IMG/VR virus record: IMGVR_UViG_3300048586_000061
Reading direction: 5' to 3' (one strand)
From: a virus
DNA: 41,982 bases
Of the stretch, positions 2,198-38,100 are shown in pieces. Below the pieces are notes generated by a model, which was not told the origin of the DNA, did no database searches, and saw nothing but the letters and a program-made list of their open reading frames with translations. The translations under genes and the position numbers were made by a program. Each line of letters starts with the position of its first letter. Within the stretch, counting starts at the first letter, position 1.

Positions 2198-2595
2198 CCA
2201 AGGCACTCACCCCACCAGCCTGGGTAGTCGACGCACTCTGCGCCCGCGTCGACCCGGAGCTGTTCTTCCCATCCCACGAGCACCAGACCACCCACATCGC
2301 CAAGGCCCTGTGCCGCACCTGCCCCGTCGTCACGGAATGCCTCGCCTACGCCCTCGCCGACCCGACGCTGGAAGGCATCTGGGCGGCGACGACACCTCGT
2401 GAGCGGTCCCGGCTCCGTGGCCCGCGCCCCGCCGTGACCCGCATCGTCACCGCCACCCCGAAGCCACGCGGCGCTACCGGGCGCCTGTCGAAGCCGCAGA
2501 CGGAACACGGCACGGCGCGCGGGTTGGCGATGCATCGGCGCCTGGGGTCGAAGCCGTGTAAGGCGTGCATCGAAGCCGGAGAGGCCGCGGCGTGA
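2194..2595 (+). CDS. whiB: WhiB-family Fe-S transcription factor with C-terminal Cys-containing extension
   Basis: ATG at 2194. Cys pattern C..(x)..CRTCPVVTEC (C-x2-C-x5-C) followed by the GIWAATT turn. The tail ends with ...HRRLGSKPCKACIEAGE. Confidence 0.8.
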   Translation: MTKALTPPAWVVDALCARVDPELFFPSHEHQTTHIAKALCRTCPVVTECLAYALADPTLEGIWAATTPRERSRLRGPRPAVTRIVTATPKPRGATGRLSKPQTEHGTARGLAMHRRLGSKPCKACIEAGEAAA

Positions 2596-3146
2596 CCCTC
2601 GACAACACCGGCAAGGGCGCCGGATACCTCGCCATCGACCCCGCCCGCTTCATCGAACCCGCCGACTGGATCACCGACGCACCCTGCGCCGGAGCCTGGG
2701 ACCTCTTCGACGTACCCGTACTCCGCGACCTCCACGCCGCGTTCCAGTACGCCGCACCCGCACTCGCCATGTGCGCGGCGTGCCCGTTCGTTGAGAAGTG
2801 CATCGCCCGCGTCGACCCCTACAACAGCCTGTTCGACGGGGTGTGTGGCGGCGTGCTCTGGCGCAACGGGCGCGCCACCGAACGACCAGCCGAGAAGCCC
2901 GCACCTGCACCCCGTGACCGCAGCGGCGACGCACCCAGGCAAGCCCGACGCCGCGCAGACAAGACCGACGACGGCAGCAAGCGCGCCTTCGACAACGCCC
3001 TCATCCGCGCCGCCGGACGACCCGCCGACGTCGACCTCCTCACACTGTGGGACGCCGCGCTGTGTCGGTGCGCCTGTGGTTCGTGGATGTTCAGTGGCGG
3101 GGACTGCGGGACGTGTCGAGCTGTGGCCACGGCGGTGGCGTCGTGA
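2592..3146 (+). CDS. Second WhiB-like protein with long C-terminal Cys-rich extension
   Basis: GTG at 2592 in a GTGA overlap. APCAG...MCAACPFVEKC...GVCGGVLW resembles the WhiB Cys ligands and G[VI]WGG turn. C-terminal CRCACGS...CGTC cluster. Confidence 0.65.
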   Translation: MTLDNTGKGAGYLAIDPARFIEPADWITDAPCAGAWDLFDVPVLRDLHAAFQYAAPALAMCAACPFVEKCIARVDPYNSLFDGVCGGVLWRNGRATERPAEKPAPAPRDRSGDAPRQARRRADKTDDGSKRAFDNALIRAAGRPADVDLLTLWDAALCRCACGSWMFSGGDCGTCRAVATAVAS

Positions 3147-4399
3147 CCAGGCCGCGCATCGGCTCCCTGTGCAGCGGCTACGGCGGGCTCGACATGGGCG
3201 TACAAGCCGTCTACGGCGGCACCGTCGCATGGCACGTCGAGTACGACCGCGACCCGTCGAAGATCCTCCACCACCACTGGCCCCACATCCCCAACCACGG
3301 CGACGTCAAAACCACCAACTGGGCCAACGTCGAACCCGTCGACATCCTCACGGCGGGGTATCCCTGCCAGCCATTCAGCCACGCAGGCAAGCGAAAGGGC
3401 ACCGATGACCCCCGACACCTCTGGCCCGACGTTGCGCGTGCCATCGGCGTACTACGACCCCGACTCGTCGTCCTGGAAAACGTCCGGGGTCATGTTTCCC
3501 TCGGACTGGCCGACGTCCTCGCAGACCTGTCCGGCCTGGGGTATGACGCGACGTGGGGAGTTGTTCGAGCTGCCGACGCCGGCGCTCCCCACGGACGCGC
3601 CCGCATCTTCATCACTGCTGCCGACACCCGCGGCGAACGACCACACGGGGGCGGAAACACGCGAGGCGCGCGAGGCGCGCGAGGCGCGCGAGGCTGGTGG
3701 GCCGGCGCTGCGGGATCTGCCGACACTGCTGCCGACGCCACGCGCGACGGACGGGACGAAGGGCGGACCGAATCAGCGGGGATCGTCCGGGGATCTGATG
3801 CTGCCGTCGGCGGTGGTGCAACTGCTCCCCACCCCGGCGGTGAACGACATGGGCGCGGGCAAGACTGTGGAGGACTGGGACGCCTGGACGGCCCGGATGC
3901 AGGAACGCCACGGGAACGGGAACGGACACGGGGCATCACTGTCGATCGAGGCGCTGAGGCTACTACCGACGCCGCGGGCGACGGGTGGGGAGAAGGGGCA
4001 ACGGACGCCCGAGGGTCAGGCGCGGGAGCTGGCCCGCGGCAGGAACATCGACCTCGGCATGGTCGGGGCACTACTCCCGACGCCGACGTCGCGGGACCAC
4101 AAGGGGGCGAACCAGCGGGGCGACTCGACGTGCCTTCATGGGGCGCTTATGCCGTCGCCATCGCCCGGTGGCAACACACCCTCGGACGACCCGCACCCGA
4201 CCCCACCGAACCCGGACGCAACGGACCCCGACTCGCTCCCGCTTTCGTGGAATGGCTGATGGGACTCCCCGCCGGCCACGTCACCGCCGTCCCCGACCTG
4301 TCGCGCAACGCCCAGCTCAAGGCCCTCGGAAACGGCGTCGTCCCGCAGCAGGCCGCGCTTGCGCTGCGGATCCTCGCCGGGATGGGGGCCGCAGCATGA
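3143..4399 (+). CDS. DNA (cytosine-5) methyltransferase, frame-2 ORF. Ends are canonical and the centre is low-complexity (see findings).
   Basis: Motif I LCSGYGGLD. Motif IV GYPCQPFS (about 3359). Motif VI LENV (3473..3484). Motif VIII DAGAPHGRARIF. C-terminus WGAYAVAIARW...FVEWLMGLPAGHVT...ALGNGVVPQQA (motifs IX/X). GTG at 3143 in a GTGA overlap. Confidence 0.8.
   Translation: MTRPRIGSLCSGYGGLDMGVQAVYGGTVAWHVEYDRDPSKILHHHWPHIPNHGDVKTTNWANVEPVDILTAGYPCQPFSHAGKRKGTDDPRHLWPDVARAIGVLRPRLVVLENVRGHVSLGLADVLADLSGLGYDATWGVVRAADAGAPHGRARIFITAADTRGERPHGGGNTRGARGARGARGWWAGAAGSADTAADATRDGRDEGRTESAGIVRGSDAAVGGGATAPHPGGERHGRGQDCGGLGRLDGPDAGTPRERERTRGITVDRGAEATTDAAGDGWGEGATDARGSGAGAGPRQEHRPRHGRGTTPDADVAGPQGGEPAGRLDVPSWGAYAVAIARWQHTLGRPAPDPTEPGRNGPRLAPAFVEWLMGLPAGHVTAVPDLSRNAQLKALGNGVVPQQAALALRILAGMGAAA
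3405..4259 (+). CDS. Nested +1-frame ORF (284 codons) with five LLPTP repeats. It may be an overlapping gene or the true target-recognition segment of the methyltransferase.
   Basis: LLPTP codons at 3615, 3726, 3822, 3960 and 4071. Hand-counted GC3 is about 82-84% in this frame versus about 56-70% in frame 2 over the same DNA. First possible start is ATG 3405, preceded by GAAAGGG. This frame is open from 3147. Confidence 0.5.
   Translation: MTPDTSGPTLRVPSAYYDPDSSSWKTSGVMFPSDWPTSSQTCPAWGMTRRGELFELPTPALPTDAPASSSLLPTPAANDHTGAETREAREAREAREAGGPALRDLPTLLPTPRATDGTKGGPNQRGSSGDLMLPSAVVQLLPTPAVNDMGAGKTVEDWDAWTARMQERHGNGNGHGASLSIEALRLLPTPRATGGEKGQRTPEGQARELARGRNIDLGMVGALLPTPTSRDHKGANQRGDSTCLHGALMPSPSPGGNTPSDDPHPTPPNPDATDPDSLPLSWNG
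3661..3695 (+). repeat. 9-bp tandem repeat GCGAGGCGC, about 3.9 copies
   Basis: gcgaggcgc at 3661, 3670 and 3679, plus gcgaggct at 3688. Encodes (REA)n in frame 3 and (GAR)n in frame 2. Confidence 0.9.
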
Positions 4400-4776
4400 G
4401 CCGCACCTGGGAGATCCGGCTGCCGTGGACCAAGCCCCCGTGCAGTGCAAACGACCGCGACCACTGGCGCGTCAAGGCGGGCAAGGTGGCCGAGATCCGG
4501 GCCGTCGCCCGCCGTGAAGCCGCTGCGGCGTTCTGGTTCGACGGCATCCCCATGTTCGACCACATCCGCGTCGGGCTGCTGTACGTCCCCCGCGACAGAC
4601 GCCGCCGCGACCCCGACAACCTCGTCGTCCCCCTGTTCAAAGCCCTCGTCGACGGCATCGTCGACGCCGGCATCGTCCCCGACGACACACCCCGCTACGT
4701 CACCCGCGAGTTCCCCGTCATCGCCGAACCCGACGGTGATCCGCGGCTCGTTCTGACCATCGAGGAGGTGCCGTGA
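4396..4776 (+). CDS. rusA: RusA-like Holliday-junction resolvase
   Basis: ATGA overlap. ...NDRDHWRVKA...RRRDPDNLVVPLFKALVDGIVDAGIVPDD matches the RusA catalytic Asp region. Confidence 0.75.
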   Translation: MSRTWEIRLPWTKPPCSANDRDHWRVKAGKVAEIRAVARREAAAAFWFDGIPMFDHIRVGLLYVPRDRRRRDPDNLVVPLFKALVDGIVDAGIVPDDTPRYVTREFPVIAEPDGDPRLVLTIEEVP

Positions 4777-4952: not shown

Positions 4953-5302
4953 TGCCCCGCGCCGCCCGGCTGTACGTCCCACTTGACGCGGCCTTCTTCG
5001 ACGACGACAAGGTCGTCCGCGCTGGCGAAGCCGCCGGATGGCTGTACCTCGCCATGTGCGCCAGGGCCAAGCAGCTCGACAACGACGGCGTCATGAACCT
5101 CGAGCAAGTCGAACGCCTCCACATCAAGGGCTGGCAGAAACGCCTCCAAACCCTCATTGAAGTCGACCTCGTCGTGCGAGTTGACGACCGGATCGGCATC
5201 TGCGGATGGCTCAACTGGAACGAAAGCAGCGCCGAACGAGCCGCCAAACGTGAACGCGACCGCATCCGGAAGGCCAAGAAATACGGGGAGGAAACGCCGT
5301 GA
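4952..5302 (+). CDS. Hypothetical protein, possibly replication-organiser-like
   Basis: GTG at 4952 (TAGTG overlap), in frame with track ORF 4862..5302. LYVPLDAAFFDDDKVVRAGEAAGWLYLAMCARA weakly recalls phage replication-organiser N-termini. Lies next to iteron-like repeats. Confidence 0.55.
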   Translation: MPRAARLYVPLDAAFFDDDKVVRAGEAAGWLYLAMCARAKQLDNDGVMNLEQVERLHIKGWQKRLQTLIEVDLVVRVDDRIGICGWLNWNESSAERAAKRERDRIRKAKKYGEETP

Positions 5303-16028: not shown

Positions 16029-18173
16029 GTGGTTCGCACATTGGTCCAGCTCAGCGGGGAGCCCGGCCCCCCGGGCGATGACGGTGCCCCGGGCCCCCCG
16101 GGCGATGACGGTGCCCCGGGCGACAAGGGCGACAAGGGCGACAAGGGCGATCCCGGTGACCCAGGCCCGCCAGGCGACGACGGCCCCCCGGGAACCAGCC
16201 TGACCTACACGCCCGGGGCCGCATACGCCAAGGGCTCCATCGTCGCCTACGACGGGCGCATGTGGGCGGCGTCGGAGGACGTTCCCGCAGCCCGCACAGC
16301 AGTGGAGTTCATCGCCACGGTTGATGCGGATTACGCACAGTTCGCGGGCACGGTCACCTGTCCGGCAGCGATCACGTCGTCGGCGATCAGTGGCGACACG
16401 ATCATCCTTGTCAGCGACATCTTCGAGTGTGCGTCGTGGGGTTCCCTCGTCGTGTCGAACATGACGCTGGCGGTTGAGGATCACGTCACCGTGTCCGGCG
16501 AGGAGCTGGGTGCCCGCATCCACTACGCCACGGCGGGCGGCGCCACCCCCTCGTTCAACTTGGGGGACGCTCGTGGTCGCATGACGTGGATCCTGGCACG
16601 CGGTGTCGACCTGTCCGGTTCGCTGCTGACTGGCTCCGTAACCAGGTCGGGGGCCACCAACTACGCTAACGCCTACGTCCCGTATTCGGGTTCGGCGCCT
16701 CCGGCAAACTCGGTGGCGTTGCATACCGTTGCCATCGGCGCCGCTGCTGCGGTTCGTCTCGCCCCGGCTATCACAGACGGCGCGTCGTCGGTGACCCTCG
16801 GTGCCAACGGCCCGCTCGCTGGGACGACTTGGCACGGTGGCGTAACGACCCGACCCGGCCCCGAGCTGGTCGAGGACTACAACACGCAGTGGTACTGGTT
16901 CAGCTTCGGCAGTTCCACGACCTCGCAGCATCAGGCCGGCGTCCTGTGGGTGCTGGTCGCAGAGGCGGATGCGTGCCAGTCGTTCGACCACTCGAAGTGG
17001 GCGAGCCTTGCCCCCGTCGGCTCGGGTGCCGTGACGCGACTGAACGACTTGGGGATCAACCCGCGCTGGTTGCAGATCCCCGAGCCGGATAAGAACTACG
17101 TGCTCGACTTCGACTATGACCTGATCGGTTCGCTCGCCGACCCTATCGCGGTCTATCTTCCGAAGCCCGCATCGCCGGACGCCGGGCACTGGCTCGATGT
17201 CACCTACCGGGCGCCGTATGACGAGGTCACCAACAACGGCGCTCGCCTCATGTATCACTATTGGCGCGCTCCCGCCTACATCGACTTCGACCTTGGCGGG
17301 AACGTCGCCTACGGGAACCTGTGGCACCCCGGCCTCGTAGTTGAGATGGCCCCGACGCGCGGCAGCGTCGCGCACATCCGCTACTCGTGGGATCCGGTGG
17401 GGCACTACTGGTACTTCGACTCGTGGGGCGGCGACGTCGCGGTGCGCGACTACGGCAACCTGCGGACGACGAACGAGGCGCGGGCGTGGTCGCTGCGGGT
17501 GAACTTCTCCCCAGAGTTGCAGGAGCTGCCGGACTTCGCGGACACGAAGGCCGACTTGATGACCAACATTTCGGGGATCCCGCCGTCGACGCGGCGCCTG
17601 CTGGCGAAGCGGAACGTGCAGGTCGATGCGATCAGCACGCAGACGGGGTACGAGTCGTCTTCGTGGCGATACCAGAAGGATTCCGACACGTCGTGGTCGG
17701 GCGTCAACGGCTACTTCACGTCTGGTTGGAATAGTGCTACCGCGCGCTGTGCGTCGCCGGGTATCGGGGTGGCGCAGTATCCGATCATTCACGAGATCGG
17801 GCACGCCTGGGATTACAACTTCTTCCCAGCGAAGGGCTACACCAACGGCCTGATCCCGACGTTCGGTGGCGGCGTGCAGAACACGATCCACAACGAGATC
17901 GCATTGCAGGCGTTGCATACGGCGGCGCTGCCGTCGATCACTAACGTCAAGTGGGAAGCCGTTCAGGAGTGGATCGCTCAGATGATCATGCTCCGGTGGA
18001 TGGAGTTCGTTCCCGGCTACACCGCGACGAGTGACAGCGCGTGGACGACAGAGCGCAACCAGTGCGGCGGTAACCGCGCACACGGCGCGGGCACGATCTA
18101 CACCGAGTTCGTCCTCTACATGGAGGGCATCGGGGCGTTCCCGACGTCGGCTTACTGGAACTCGACGGTGTAA
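16029..18173 (+). CDS. Collagen-like (G-X-Y)15 fibre protein with C-terminal HExxH domain
   Basis: GTG at 16029, 8 nt after GGAGG. G-X-Y triplets about 16056..16190. HEIGH at 17790..17804. The track ORF extends upstream into the previous gene. Confidence 0.7.
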
Positions 18174-37376: not shown

Positions 37377-38100
37377 GCTGCTGTTCAAGTTCACCGCTTC
37401 CGGACGCCGCCCCACGCACGCCGGCAACGGGTTCGTGTGGCCCGCGCCGTCCGGGAAGCGCCCCGGCAAGTGGACTGACCGGGTGCCCGAGGTGGTGCCG
37501 TGCGAGTCCGGGTATCACCTGACGACAGCGGCGCACCTCCTCGACTGGACGCACGCCGAACTGTGGGTGGCGGAGGGTCGCGGCGTCCGGGTCGACGCTG
37601 GCAACAAGGTGGCGTTTGAGTCGGCGCGGCTGGTGCGTCGCGTTGATGCGTGGAATGAGCGGACGGCGCGGGAGTTCGCGTGCTGGTGTGCTGAGCAGGC
37701 GTTGCCGTTCGCGGACGAGAAGACCCGCGCGGTGTGCGTGGACACGATCGCGGTGGCACGTGCTTACGCCGCTGGTAGTGCCACAGTCGCACAGTTGGAC
37801 GCCGCACGGGACGCCGCACGGGCCGCCGCACGGGACGCCGCATGGGCCGCCGCACGGGACGCCGCACGGGCCGCCGCACGGGACGCCGCATGGGACGCCG
37901 CATGGGACGCCGCACGGGACGCCGCACGGGCCGCCGCACGGGACGCCGCACGGGCCGCCGCACGGGCCGCCGCACGGGCCGCCGCACGGGCCGCCGCACG
38001 GGCCGCCGCACGGGACGCCGCATGGGACGCCGCATGGGACGCCGCATGGGACGCGCAAACCGCGCACCTCCTCGACATGTTGGGACTCACCGATGACTGA
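37369..38100 (+). CDS. Two-part protein: globular N-terminal domain plus 84-residue (AA[R/W][D/A])21 repeat
   Basis: GTG at 37369 (8-nt overlap). N-terminus GNGFVWPAPSGK...CESGYHLT...LWVAEG..., then W.ERTAREFACWCAEQALPF..., then the repeat. Confidence 0.65.
   Translation: MAELLFKFTASGRRPTHAGNGFVWPAPSGKRPGKWTDRVPEVVPCESGYHLTTAAHLLDWTHAELWVAEGRGVRVDAGNKVAFESARLVRRVDAWNERTAREFACWCAEQALPFADEKTRAVCVDTIAVARAYAAGSATVAQLDAARDAARAAARDAAWAAARDAARAAARDAAWDAAWDAARDAARAAARDAARAAARAAARAAARAAARAAARDAAWDAAWDAAWDAQTAHLLDMLGLTDD
37801..38052 (+). repeat. 12-bp tandem repeat GCCGCA[C/T]GGG[A/C]C x 21
   Basis: 21 contiguous units counted by hand. Only positions 7 and 11 of the unit vary. No stop codon in any of the six frames. 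Confidence 0.95.

Follow-up and report, generated by a model that had tools for sequence, protein, structure and literature searches.

Two two-subunit cytosine-5 (C5) DNA methyltransferases, M.EcoHK31I and M.AquI, are given in the literature as the exceptions among these enzymes. M.EcoHK31I (YGGCCR; E. coli HK31) is a heterodimer that is active only when both chains are present; its beta chain is encoded wholly in another frame of the alpha gene and is translated from start codons internal to that gene (PMC2836561, PMC3404938). M.AquI (CYCGRG) is split within the variable region, with the small subunit holding the rest of that region together with motifs IX and X (PMC3404938). A further type of overlap has been described in actinophages, where ShiLan-type HNH endonuclease open reading frames (ORFs) lie out of frame in DNA methylase genes. 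The host frame remains stop-free and encodes a poorly structured loop, and the HNH ORFs, which occupy the third frame and have no detectable ribosome-binding site, are sporadically distributed homing-endonuclease passengers (PMC11855218). Here, we describe a locus in IMG/VR virus record IMGVR_UViG_3300048586_000061 (“the window”, meaning the whole stretch of 41,982 nt) that, like M.EcoHK31I, has a second same-strand ORF in a different frame inside a methyltransferase gene. We propose that the two overlapping frames probably encode a two-polypeptide C5-methyltransferase, with alpha as the catalytic core and beta as the recognition module. The original prediction for this locus weighed three options without choosing among them: a genuine overprinted gene, a methyltransferase chain that needs a +1 and a −1 shift, and two compensating indel errors in the assembly. 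The M.EcoHK31I precedent was not anticipated there.

All features of the locus are on the plus strand. The alpha ORF (3143–4399; 418 aa) encodes the catalytic polypeptide in frame A, called frame 2 in the original prediction, and is uninterrupted. The ORF listing places the start of frame A at GTG 3047 and its end at 4399; however, GTG 3143 overlaps the stop codon of the upstream gene as GTGA and has the better Shine-Dalgarno (SD) match (duplex free energy, dG, −9.5), making it the likely start of alpha on sequence grounds. The N-terminal catalytic block (N block; 3143–3613) contains motif I (LCSGYGGLD, 3167–3193), motif IV (GYPCQPFS, 3356–3379), motif VI (LENV, 3473–3484) and motif VIII (HGRARIF, 3569–3610). 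It is followed by ~175 Gly/Arg/Asp/Ala-rich residues (3614–4138) that are the frame-A reading of the LLPTP units of beta, and that we refer to as the “ghost”. The C-terminal block (C block; 4139–4399) contains the WGAY..ARW block (4139–4171), GRPAPDPTEPG (4184–4216), motif IX (FVEWLMGLPAGHVT, 4244–4285) and motif X (GNGVVP, 4328–4345), meaning that motifs VI, VIII, IX and X are all in one polypeptide. The alpha stop codon overlaps a downstream ATG as ATGA (4396–4399).

The beta ORF (3405–4259, ATG to TGA; 284 aa) is in frame B, previously called frame 3, which is +1 relative to frame A. It consists of a 70-aa leader (3405–3614) overprinted on alpha motifs VI–VIII, five LLPTP-initiated units (3615–4130, starting at 3615, 3726, 3822, 3960 and 4071) that include an NDMG..HGNGNGHG..IEALR module (3843–3959), and a tail (4131–4259) that overlaps the alpha WGAY..PTE..FVEW codons. 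The candidate initiation site (3393–3407) is GAAAGGG (3393–3399), a 5-nt spacer and ATG (3405–3407), and falls within the alpha GKRKGTDD codons. At the other end, the beta TGA stop sits inside the alpha CTG-ATG codons (L-M of motif IX). Within the leader, beta reads WKTS over alpha LENV, WGMTRRG over LGYDATW, and ELPTPALP over AADAGAP; under the beta tail, alpha uses codons that end in A or T (GCT, TAT, CAA, GGA, CGA, GCA, GAA, GGA). A dual-coding stretch at 3660–3694 is a perfect 9-nt tandem repeat (CGCGAGGCG × 3.9) that translates as REA × 4 in beta and ARG × 4 in alpha. Homologue P0121 has fewer copies of this repeat; because the period is a multiple of three, a change in copy number leaves both frames intact. 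Thus, much of what had been read from the letters of the window stands: frame A is one open ORF with C5-methyltransferase motifs at both ends, as the ORFs and motif coordinates confirm, the five repeat positions are exact, and LENV/WKTS and AADAGAP/LPTPALP are indeed frame-shifted readings of each other, describing the dual-coding stretch.

How do the two reading frames relate to known protein families? In frame A, the Pfam match to PF00145 covers residues 6–161 only (E = 5e-36). Alpha also scores above the cut-off for TIGR00675 and matches phrog_363/116. In the A4 family profile, the equivalent of the N block aligns to M.HhaI residues 7–177, and the motif IX/X stretch aligns weakly to M.HhaI 272–307. 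Alpha does not have a folded target-recognition domain between motifs VIII and IX of the same chain. No family was found for beta in Pfam or NCBIfam, and no nuclease domain; its sole PHROG match is to phrog_1008, “DNA methyltransferase”, over profile positions 61–211. Full-length beta homologues in databases are 55%–68% identical, and are unnamed or called “hypothetical protein”, with no Pfam domain. As proposed in the original prediction, we also searched with a chimeric protein, A(3143–3613) + B(3615–4130) + A(4136–4399), which matches thousands of PF00145 proteins; the best match, P0001, is 66% identical over 94% of the query. In other homologues, the LLPTP units share a frame with the catalytic motifs and lie between motifs VIII and IX, so the original prediction was correct in assigning such repeats to the variable region of C5-methyltransferases from actinobacteria and phages. 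Five homologues (P0003, P0008, P0009, P0015 and P0017) have a middle that is read in the frame-A phase of the window (ERHGRGQD..RERER..PADA). The beta leader matches 830 clusters in a 50%-identity representative set of 1.84 billion proteins. These alignments nearly always begin at residue 1–3 of the called database protein, although some matches have the module internal to the protein, and the window’s beta ATG corresponds to the called start of hundreds of database proteins. The leader was found in the same frame as the N-terminal catalytic motifs in no database protein examined.

We collected 243 related loci from viral, genomic and metagenomic collections, such that counts are over 244, and sorted them into classes according to which frame holds each of three parts: the N block, the LLPTP motifs and the C block. 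The layout of the window, with N and C blocks in frame 0 and LLPTP motifs in frame +1 (the shifted class), is found in 80 of 244 loci (82 of 155 in a first pass). In 63 loci, most LLPTP motifs are in frame 0 (the in-frame class), and in 10 loci the N block is in frame 0, the LLPTP motifs and C block are in frame +1, and frame 0 is closed (the single-shift class). Mean GC content is equal in the shifted and in-frame classes (0.676 and 0.671). Members of the shifted class come from IMG/VR viral contigs, complete Streptomyces chromosomes, other actinobacterial genomes and Gordonia phage Gudmit, whose genome is finished. The offset between frames is +1 in every case, with junctions that coincide with domain boundaries. 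Every class has a conserved leader with protein-like sequence in the +1 frame upstream of motif VIII. In the window’s subtype the leader is M..DTSGPT...YDP.S.SW[KR]TS....S.T.P.[SW]G[SM].R.G.L[FY]..PT...T....SS-LLPTP, and in a second subtype it is P[IL]A.WNP.R.VWET.Q....HS.V[YF]SETWP.SGMTRNG.AYELPTWEP. Indeed, in-frame relatives retain a short beta: their +1 frame encodes the leader and one or two units before a stop, and their frame 0 encodes a short ghost over beta followed by its own LLPTP units. By a strict regular expression, beta/alpha have 1–5/0 units in the shifted class and 0–2/1–4 in the in-frame class. Nearest neighbors by N-block identity belong to different classes in 33 of 153 cases, which indicates that the point of return to frame 0 is evolutionarily labile.

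These classes also bear on the GC content at third codon positions (GC3). In frame A, GC3 is 0.90 at 3143–3404, 0.68 at 3405–3611, 0.57–0.60 at 3612–4135, 0.66 at 4136–4259 and 0.87 at 4260–4399; in frame B it is 0.62 before 3405 and then 0.84, 0.78, 0.85, 0.86 and 0.74. Earlier hand counts were approximately right, and the drop that had been taken as a sign that frame B is coding from 3405 is real. It is not specific to the layout, however, since frame-A GC3 also falls after the beta start in in-frame relatives of the window’s subtype (0.84 to 0.69). The drop is family-wide because in-frame relatives keep the +1 leader ORF, and we therefore dropped it as evidence specific to the shifted layout.

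Both frames show evidence of selection. We estimated the ratio of nonsynonymous to synonymous substitution rates (dN/dS) by the Nei-Gojobori method in 20 phylogenetically independent shifted pairs. From motif VIII to WGAY, dN/dS is 2.04 in frame 0, 0.30 in frame +1 and 1.52 in frame +2. The opposite applies to the flanks, where the corresponding values are 0.32, 1.22 and 1.86 for the N block, and 0.27, 1.49 and 1.87 for the C block. Hence, the LLPTP region evolves as a +1 coding sequence, and its frame-0 reading is an unconstrained ghost. Although unconstrained in sequence, the ghost has no stop codons in 74 of 74 shifted loci, against 23.2 expected from synonymous shuffling of the +1 codons; as a control, 2 of 61 in-frame loci have the corresponding frame open, against 3.5 expected. 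That the ghost is kept open implies that ribosomes must read from the N block through the ghost into the C block, giving an N-ghost-C polypeptide, alpha.

Constraint on the +1 frame extends upstream, into the sequence that encodes the catalytic motifs. Over the last 66 codons of the N block, the +1 frame is open in 57 of 58 loci of the window’s subtype, and in 20 of 20 and 8 of 8 loci in two further counts, with 23.6, 8.8 and 2.8 expected, respectively. No stop avoidance was seen in frame +2 over the same stretch. Low-GC loci are the clearest cases, with no stops against 4.7 expected in L237 (GC 0.47), and none against 3.3 in L198. Synonymous change, which the original prediction had proposed as a test, is suppressed where the leader overlaps: alpha dS is 0.367 under the leader, compared with 0.671 upstream and 0.804 in the distal C block, with dN unchanged, and the drop under the leader occurs in 53 of 58 independent pairs (Wilcoxon p = 4e-10). 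Under the beta tail, alpha dS is modestly lower in the shifted class (0.569 vs 0.726, p = 0.009), with no reduction at the equivalent stretch of the in-frame class (0.713 vs 0.654).

The start of beta is conserved as well. We defined an SD-like site by a duplex dG with the anti-SD sequence of −6 or lower, for which the background is 16%. The window’s beta site has a dG of −7.5, and values of −6 or lower occur at just 14% of window positions. An SD-like site and start codon are found at the homologous position in 50 of 58 and 15 of 20 shifted loci, in 16 of 17 and 41 of 44 in-frame loci, and in 9 of the 12 remaining single-shift and other loci. For the window’s subtype, the 50 loci have the SD-like site and an ATG 206–209 nt upstream of the end of motif VIII, and in 46 shifted loci of this subtype the distance is exactly 206 nt. 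The A/T-ending codons GGA, GAT and AGT are rare in high-GC hosts, including Streptomyces. Streptomyces type-1 loci use the alpha codons GGA and GAT in a beta site that reads CGGAAGGGAACCGCCGATG, and in several type-2 loci an AGT codon provides the GTG start. In L237, AAAGGAG is followed by six bases and then by an ATG that comes immediately after a +1 stop. Thus, selection acts on both frames, a start signal inside alpha is conserved, the ghost is kept free of stops, and the layout is widespread and labile. Of the options in the original prediction, the overprinted gene is supported by the dN/dS of 0.30 against 2.04, the conserved start site, the suppression of dS, and the use of the same ATG as the called start of database proteins.

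We envisage that alpha would be translated straight through, with a disordered ghost loop in place of the variable region, and that beta would be translated independently from the internal SD-like site and ATG in the +1 frame. Beta would then supply the module that usually lies between motifs VIII and IX, i.e., the 70-residue leader followed by five LLPTP units, and by analogy with M.EcoHK31I the two chains would probably assemble non-covalently into an active enzyme. AlphaFold2 predictions speak to parts of this model. For P0001, a mostly in-frame homologue, the mean predicted local distance difference test (pLDDT) score is 79.7, with confident catalytic parts and scores of 66–88 for the NDMG module; its ghost (residues 150–205) is mostly below 50 (150–185 and 196–202) and is predicted to be disordered. 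For beta alone, the mean pLDDT is 59.9, with one confident predicted helix in the NDMG module and two predicted beta-hairpins in the leader (aa 15–26 and 45–55), where the covering 10-residue blocks average 65–82.

Several points weigh against the two-polypeptide model. We infer from analogy and from the way the sequences evolve that beta is translated, that it associates with alpha, and that it has a role in target recognition. The predicted model of beta is poor, and a Foldseek comparison of this low-confidence model with the PDB returned nothing below E = 7; a sequence-profile search of the PDB found only the catalytic part of HhaI/HaeIII-type enzymes, and no solved structure with LLPTP units. 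The beta tail is weakly constrained (p = 0.009 and 0.023). The sequences behind the family statistics are related, a problem that the use of independent pairs lessens without removing. In the window alone, the openness of the ghost is unremarkable (P = 0.21 by synonymous shuffling of frame B); its significance comes from the family rather than the window, because the layout recurs in 80 of 244 loci, all of them with frame A open. Finally, M.EcoHK31I has motif IX in beta whereas the window has it in alpha, and the link between the two is one of architecture, not of sequence comparison.

Could beta be translated without being a subunit of the methyltransferase? It might instead regulate the enzyme, act on its own as a DNA-binding or anti-defence protein, or be carried along as a selfish passenger, and any of these would fit the evidence for selection on beta equally well. 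Relatives whose alpha has LLPTP units of its own still keep a short beta (the leader and about one unit), such that beta is retained where alpha looks self-sufficient. Moreover, actinophage methylase genes host out-of-frame passenger ORFs over which the host frame is stop-free (PMC11855218), and L181 has a LAGLIDADG endonuclease in its +1 frame. Nevertheless, we consider a non-subunit role unlikely. The LLPTP units of beta are the modules that other homologues carry in frame between motifs VIII and IX, and in relatives beta carries motif IX, or both IX and X (phrog_1008), motifs that are integral to the enzyme. No Pfam domain, nuclease or otherwise, was found in beta, and the beta leader is present in every class sampled, unlike a patchy homing element. 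For these reasons, and given the PHROG match to a methyltransferase, a homing-endonuclease insertion was rejected as the identity of beta.

An alternative in which the locus makes a single full-length methyltransferase would require two programmed frameshifts, +1 at ~3612–3640 and −1 at ~4125–4140. This is what the near-perfect match of the A-B-A chimera to single-frame homologues such as P0001 might suggest, and a double frameshift would also give an offset that is always +1 and junctions at domain boundaries. We regard it as very unlikely. A slippery sequence is conserved at neither junction: 2 of 80 loci have a canonical X_XXY_YYZ heptamer in the beta frame close to the second junction, and no +1 re-pairing or slip motif was apparent in the 11 first-junction sequences inspected. 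Two sequential frameshifts would multiply their inefficiencies. They would also leave unexplained why the ghost is stop-free, why an SD-like site and start codon lie 206–209 nt upstream, why the sequence before the first junction avoids +1 stops and shows suppressed synonymous change, and why the position of the return to frame 0 differs so much between close relatives. The +1/−1 option of the original prediction thus finds no support. Nor is it credible, except as the slightest of chances, that the layout is an artefact or a product of decay, whether two compensating assembly indels or a recent pseudogene that stays open through high GC content, even though chance alone would leave the window’s ghost, taken by itself, open in about one case in five. 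Eighty independent loci from different sequencing projects share the layout, including complete genomes such as Gudmit and Streptomyces chromosomes; the shifted segment shows purifying selection when read in its own frame, and the ghost avoids stops far beyond expectation. Compared with L161, the nearest mostly in-frame relative (N block 82% identical), the core units are ~85% identical in DNA, judged by eye, and no 1-nt indel was found; the junction regions are instead non-homologous stretches. Recurrence of the layout and non-homologous junctions together exclude assembly error at the family level, and with it the compensating indels that had been suggested earlier.

Other features of the window and its relatives are worth recording. 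Upstream of alpha are a WhiB-family ORF (2200–2592; PF02467, E = 2.5e-20) and a second Cys-rich ORF (2565–3146) that has no Pfam match and ends in the GTGA overlap with the alpha start; downstream, a 126-aa ORF (4396–4776) is coupled to the alpha stop by the ATGA overlap. The gene context resembles that of L161. Megablast searches of the locus (3047–4399) and of window positions 5000–29000 against INPHARED phages gave no match. Elsewhere in the window there is a long tandem array at 37797–38054 (12-nt unit GGACGCCGCACG × 21.5, 93% matches), and nested perfect 27-nt and 9-nt tandem repeats at 16065–16150 (GGCCCCCCGGGCGATGACGGTGCCCCG; GGGCGACAA), which would encode a collagen-like Gly-X-Y stretch, possibly within a tail-fibre gene. 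Among the relatives, members of the second subtype (e.g., L002, L011, L013 and L151) have an insertion of ~30 residues in alpha between motifs VI and VIII. It reads ..SA.ADS.VEPCPGCVGD.....LRALG.. in alpha and, in the +1 frame, as a conserved segment of the beta leader, ..IA.WNPARDVWETDQ...HSDVYSE..; both readings are protein-like. L181 has an 858-nt gap between its N and C blocks, with a LAGLIDADG homing-endonuclease-like ORF (MNLQYAAGLIDGEGY...) in the +1 frame; the methyltransferase frame 0 is stop-free over this ORF, much as in the ShiLan-type HNH loci, but the +1 leader of L181 looks degenerate. In L248 (P0320, 638–1756), the beta-frame protein has LLPTP units flanking the leader module on both sides, and the −1 frame reads PCQPFS..ENV..APHRRARWF, a ghost and WGPYGPAIERWE, such that the overlap seems to reach upstream of motif IV.

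In public records, gene calls for this family cover just one of the two frames, alpha or beta, or only fragments. For example, Gudmit gp58 (L245) is annotated as a single frame-0 “DNA methylase” ORF, and in L244 (2501–3181) beta is the only ORF called. In Rhodococcus phage ReT1v-2 (L246), coding sequence 1754–2428 is a “hypothetical protein” of 224 aa that the chimera matches in three pieces, and 2506–2658 is a 50-aa “DNA methyltransferase” fragment. As a consequence of this inconsistent frame calling, methyltransferase subunits are missed or mislabelled.

Three relatives with lower GC content come closest to the described heterodimer. In L247 (2500–3547; GC 0.60), L249 (Leptospira interrogans plasmid p2, NZ_CP043879.1 51884–52699) and L250 (Acinetobacter baumannii plasmid, NZ_CP050417.1 29551–30276), alpha and beta overlap fully on the same strand over 240–350 co-extensive codons at a +1 offset; the two plasmid loci have a GC content of 0.48–0.49. 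All three have motif IX (WVEWLMGWPLGWT) in beta, and motifs I–VIII and X in alpha, and thereby reproduce the layout of M.EcoHK31I. The beta frame of L247 (P0301) begins MSWLISKA... and has a leader-like module, WPTP/FPTP units and motif IX (NPPWVEWLMAWPIGWT); the −1 frame of L247 is stop-free across the whole 1047-nt gene and contains motifs I, IV, VI and VIII, a ghost and motif X. The +1 frame has 0–1 stops in L247 and L250, against 6.3 expected. By a shuffle test, stop avoidance is significant in L247 and the Acinetobacter pair, but not in the Leptospira pair alone (p = 0.16). RefSeq calls only the alpha frame of L249 and L250, as “DNA cytosine methyltransferase”, and the caller for L247 took only beta.

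We suggest tentatively, with the balance tipping slightly the other way, that M.EcoHK31I may be one member of a large and essentially unannotated superfamily spread over phages, prophages and plasmids of Actinomycetota, spirochaetes and proteobacteria. In its members, the gene for the catalytic domain of a C5-methyltransferase would encode the recognition (small) domain in its +1 frame, with dual-coding motifs VI–VIII and a mobile point of return to frame 0: after the first unit, just before WGxY, after motif IX, or never. Our literature searches found no survey of M.EcoHK31I relatives, and no description of LLPTP-type methyltransferases or of such an overlap in actinophages.

What are the implications of this layout? 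If the superfamily exists, single indels would re-partition recognition units between the subunits, providing a frame-switch route to diverse subunit architectures and possibly to diverse specificities. Few same-strand gene overlaps of such length have been established in bacteria and phages, where they are considered rare. In the window, the overlap covers 284 codons, ~70 of them with both frames constrained and one frame encoding catalytic motifs; with hundreds of members, three arrangement classes that serve as natural controls, and a proven relative, the family would rank among the best overprinting or dual-coding systems. The layout also has practical consequences. Prediction of specificity from a single protein sequence fails when the recognition module sits in another frame, and, in genome scanning, two compensating “frameshifts” in a high-GC gene are not necessarily errors. 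Natural split C5-methyltransferases have already been used as platforms for targeted methylation (PMC2836561), and engineering of this kind would benefit from a large natural repertoire of alpha/beta pairs.

Comparison with the known systems helps to place the window among C5-methyltransferases. The monomeric enzymes M.HhaI and M.HaeIII (PF00145) share its two-domain logic, and their motifs I–VIII, IX and X align with alpha; they differ in that the alpha segment between motifs VIII and IX is an unconstrained ghost and the conserved sequence is in the other frame. The likeness to the ShiLan-type loci is looser: a hidden ORF occupies another frame of a phage methylase gene, with the host frame read through. 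However, the nested ORF of the window consists of the methyltransferase’s own variable-region repeats and has an SD-like site and ATG, and beta overlaps catalytic motifs, with a leader that is found in every class sampled. The topology of M.AquI is shared by the 10 single-shift relatives, to whose long beta phrog_1008 corresponds; in the window, by contrast, the C block is back in the alpha frame, alpha is open throughout, and beta is nested. The published recognition domain of M.EcoHK31I is placed in alpha, whereas we propose that of the window to be in beta. With motif IX in alpha, beta of the window is left with the leader and LLPTP units only, and alpha therefore holds a long stop-free ghost in place of the variable region. 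The window thus follows the M.EcoHK31I principle in a variant form, with motif IX kept in alpha. Such a layout is experimentally proven only for M.EcoHK31I, and is found here in hundreds of mostly unannotated loci, among which the point of return to the alpha frame varies.

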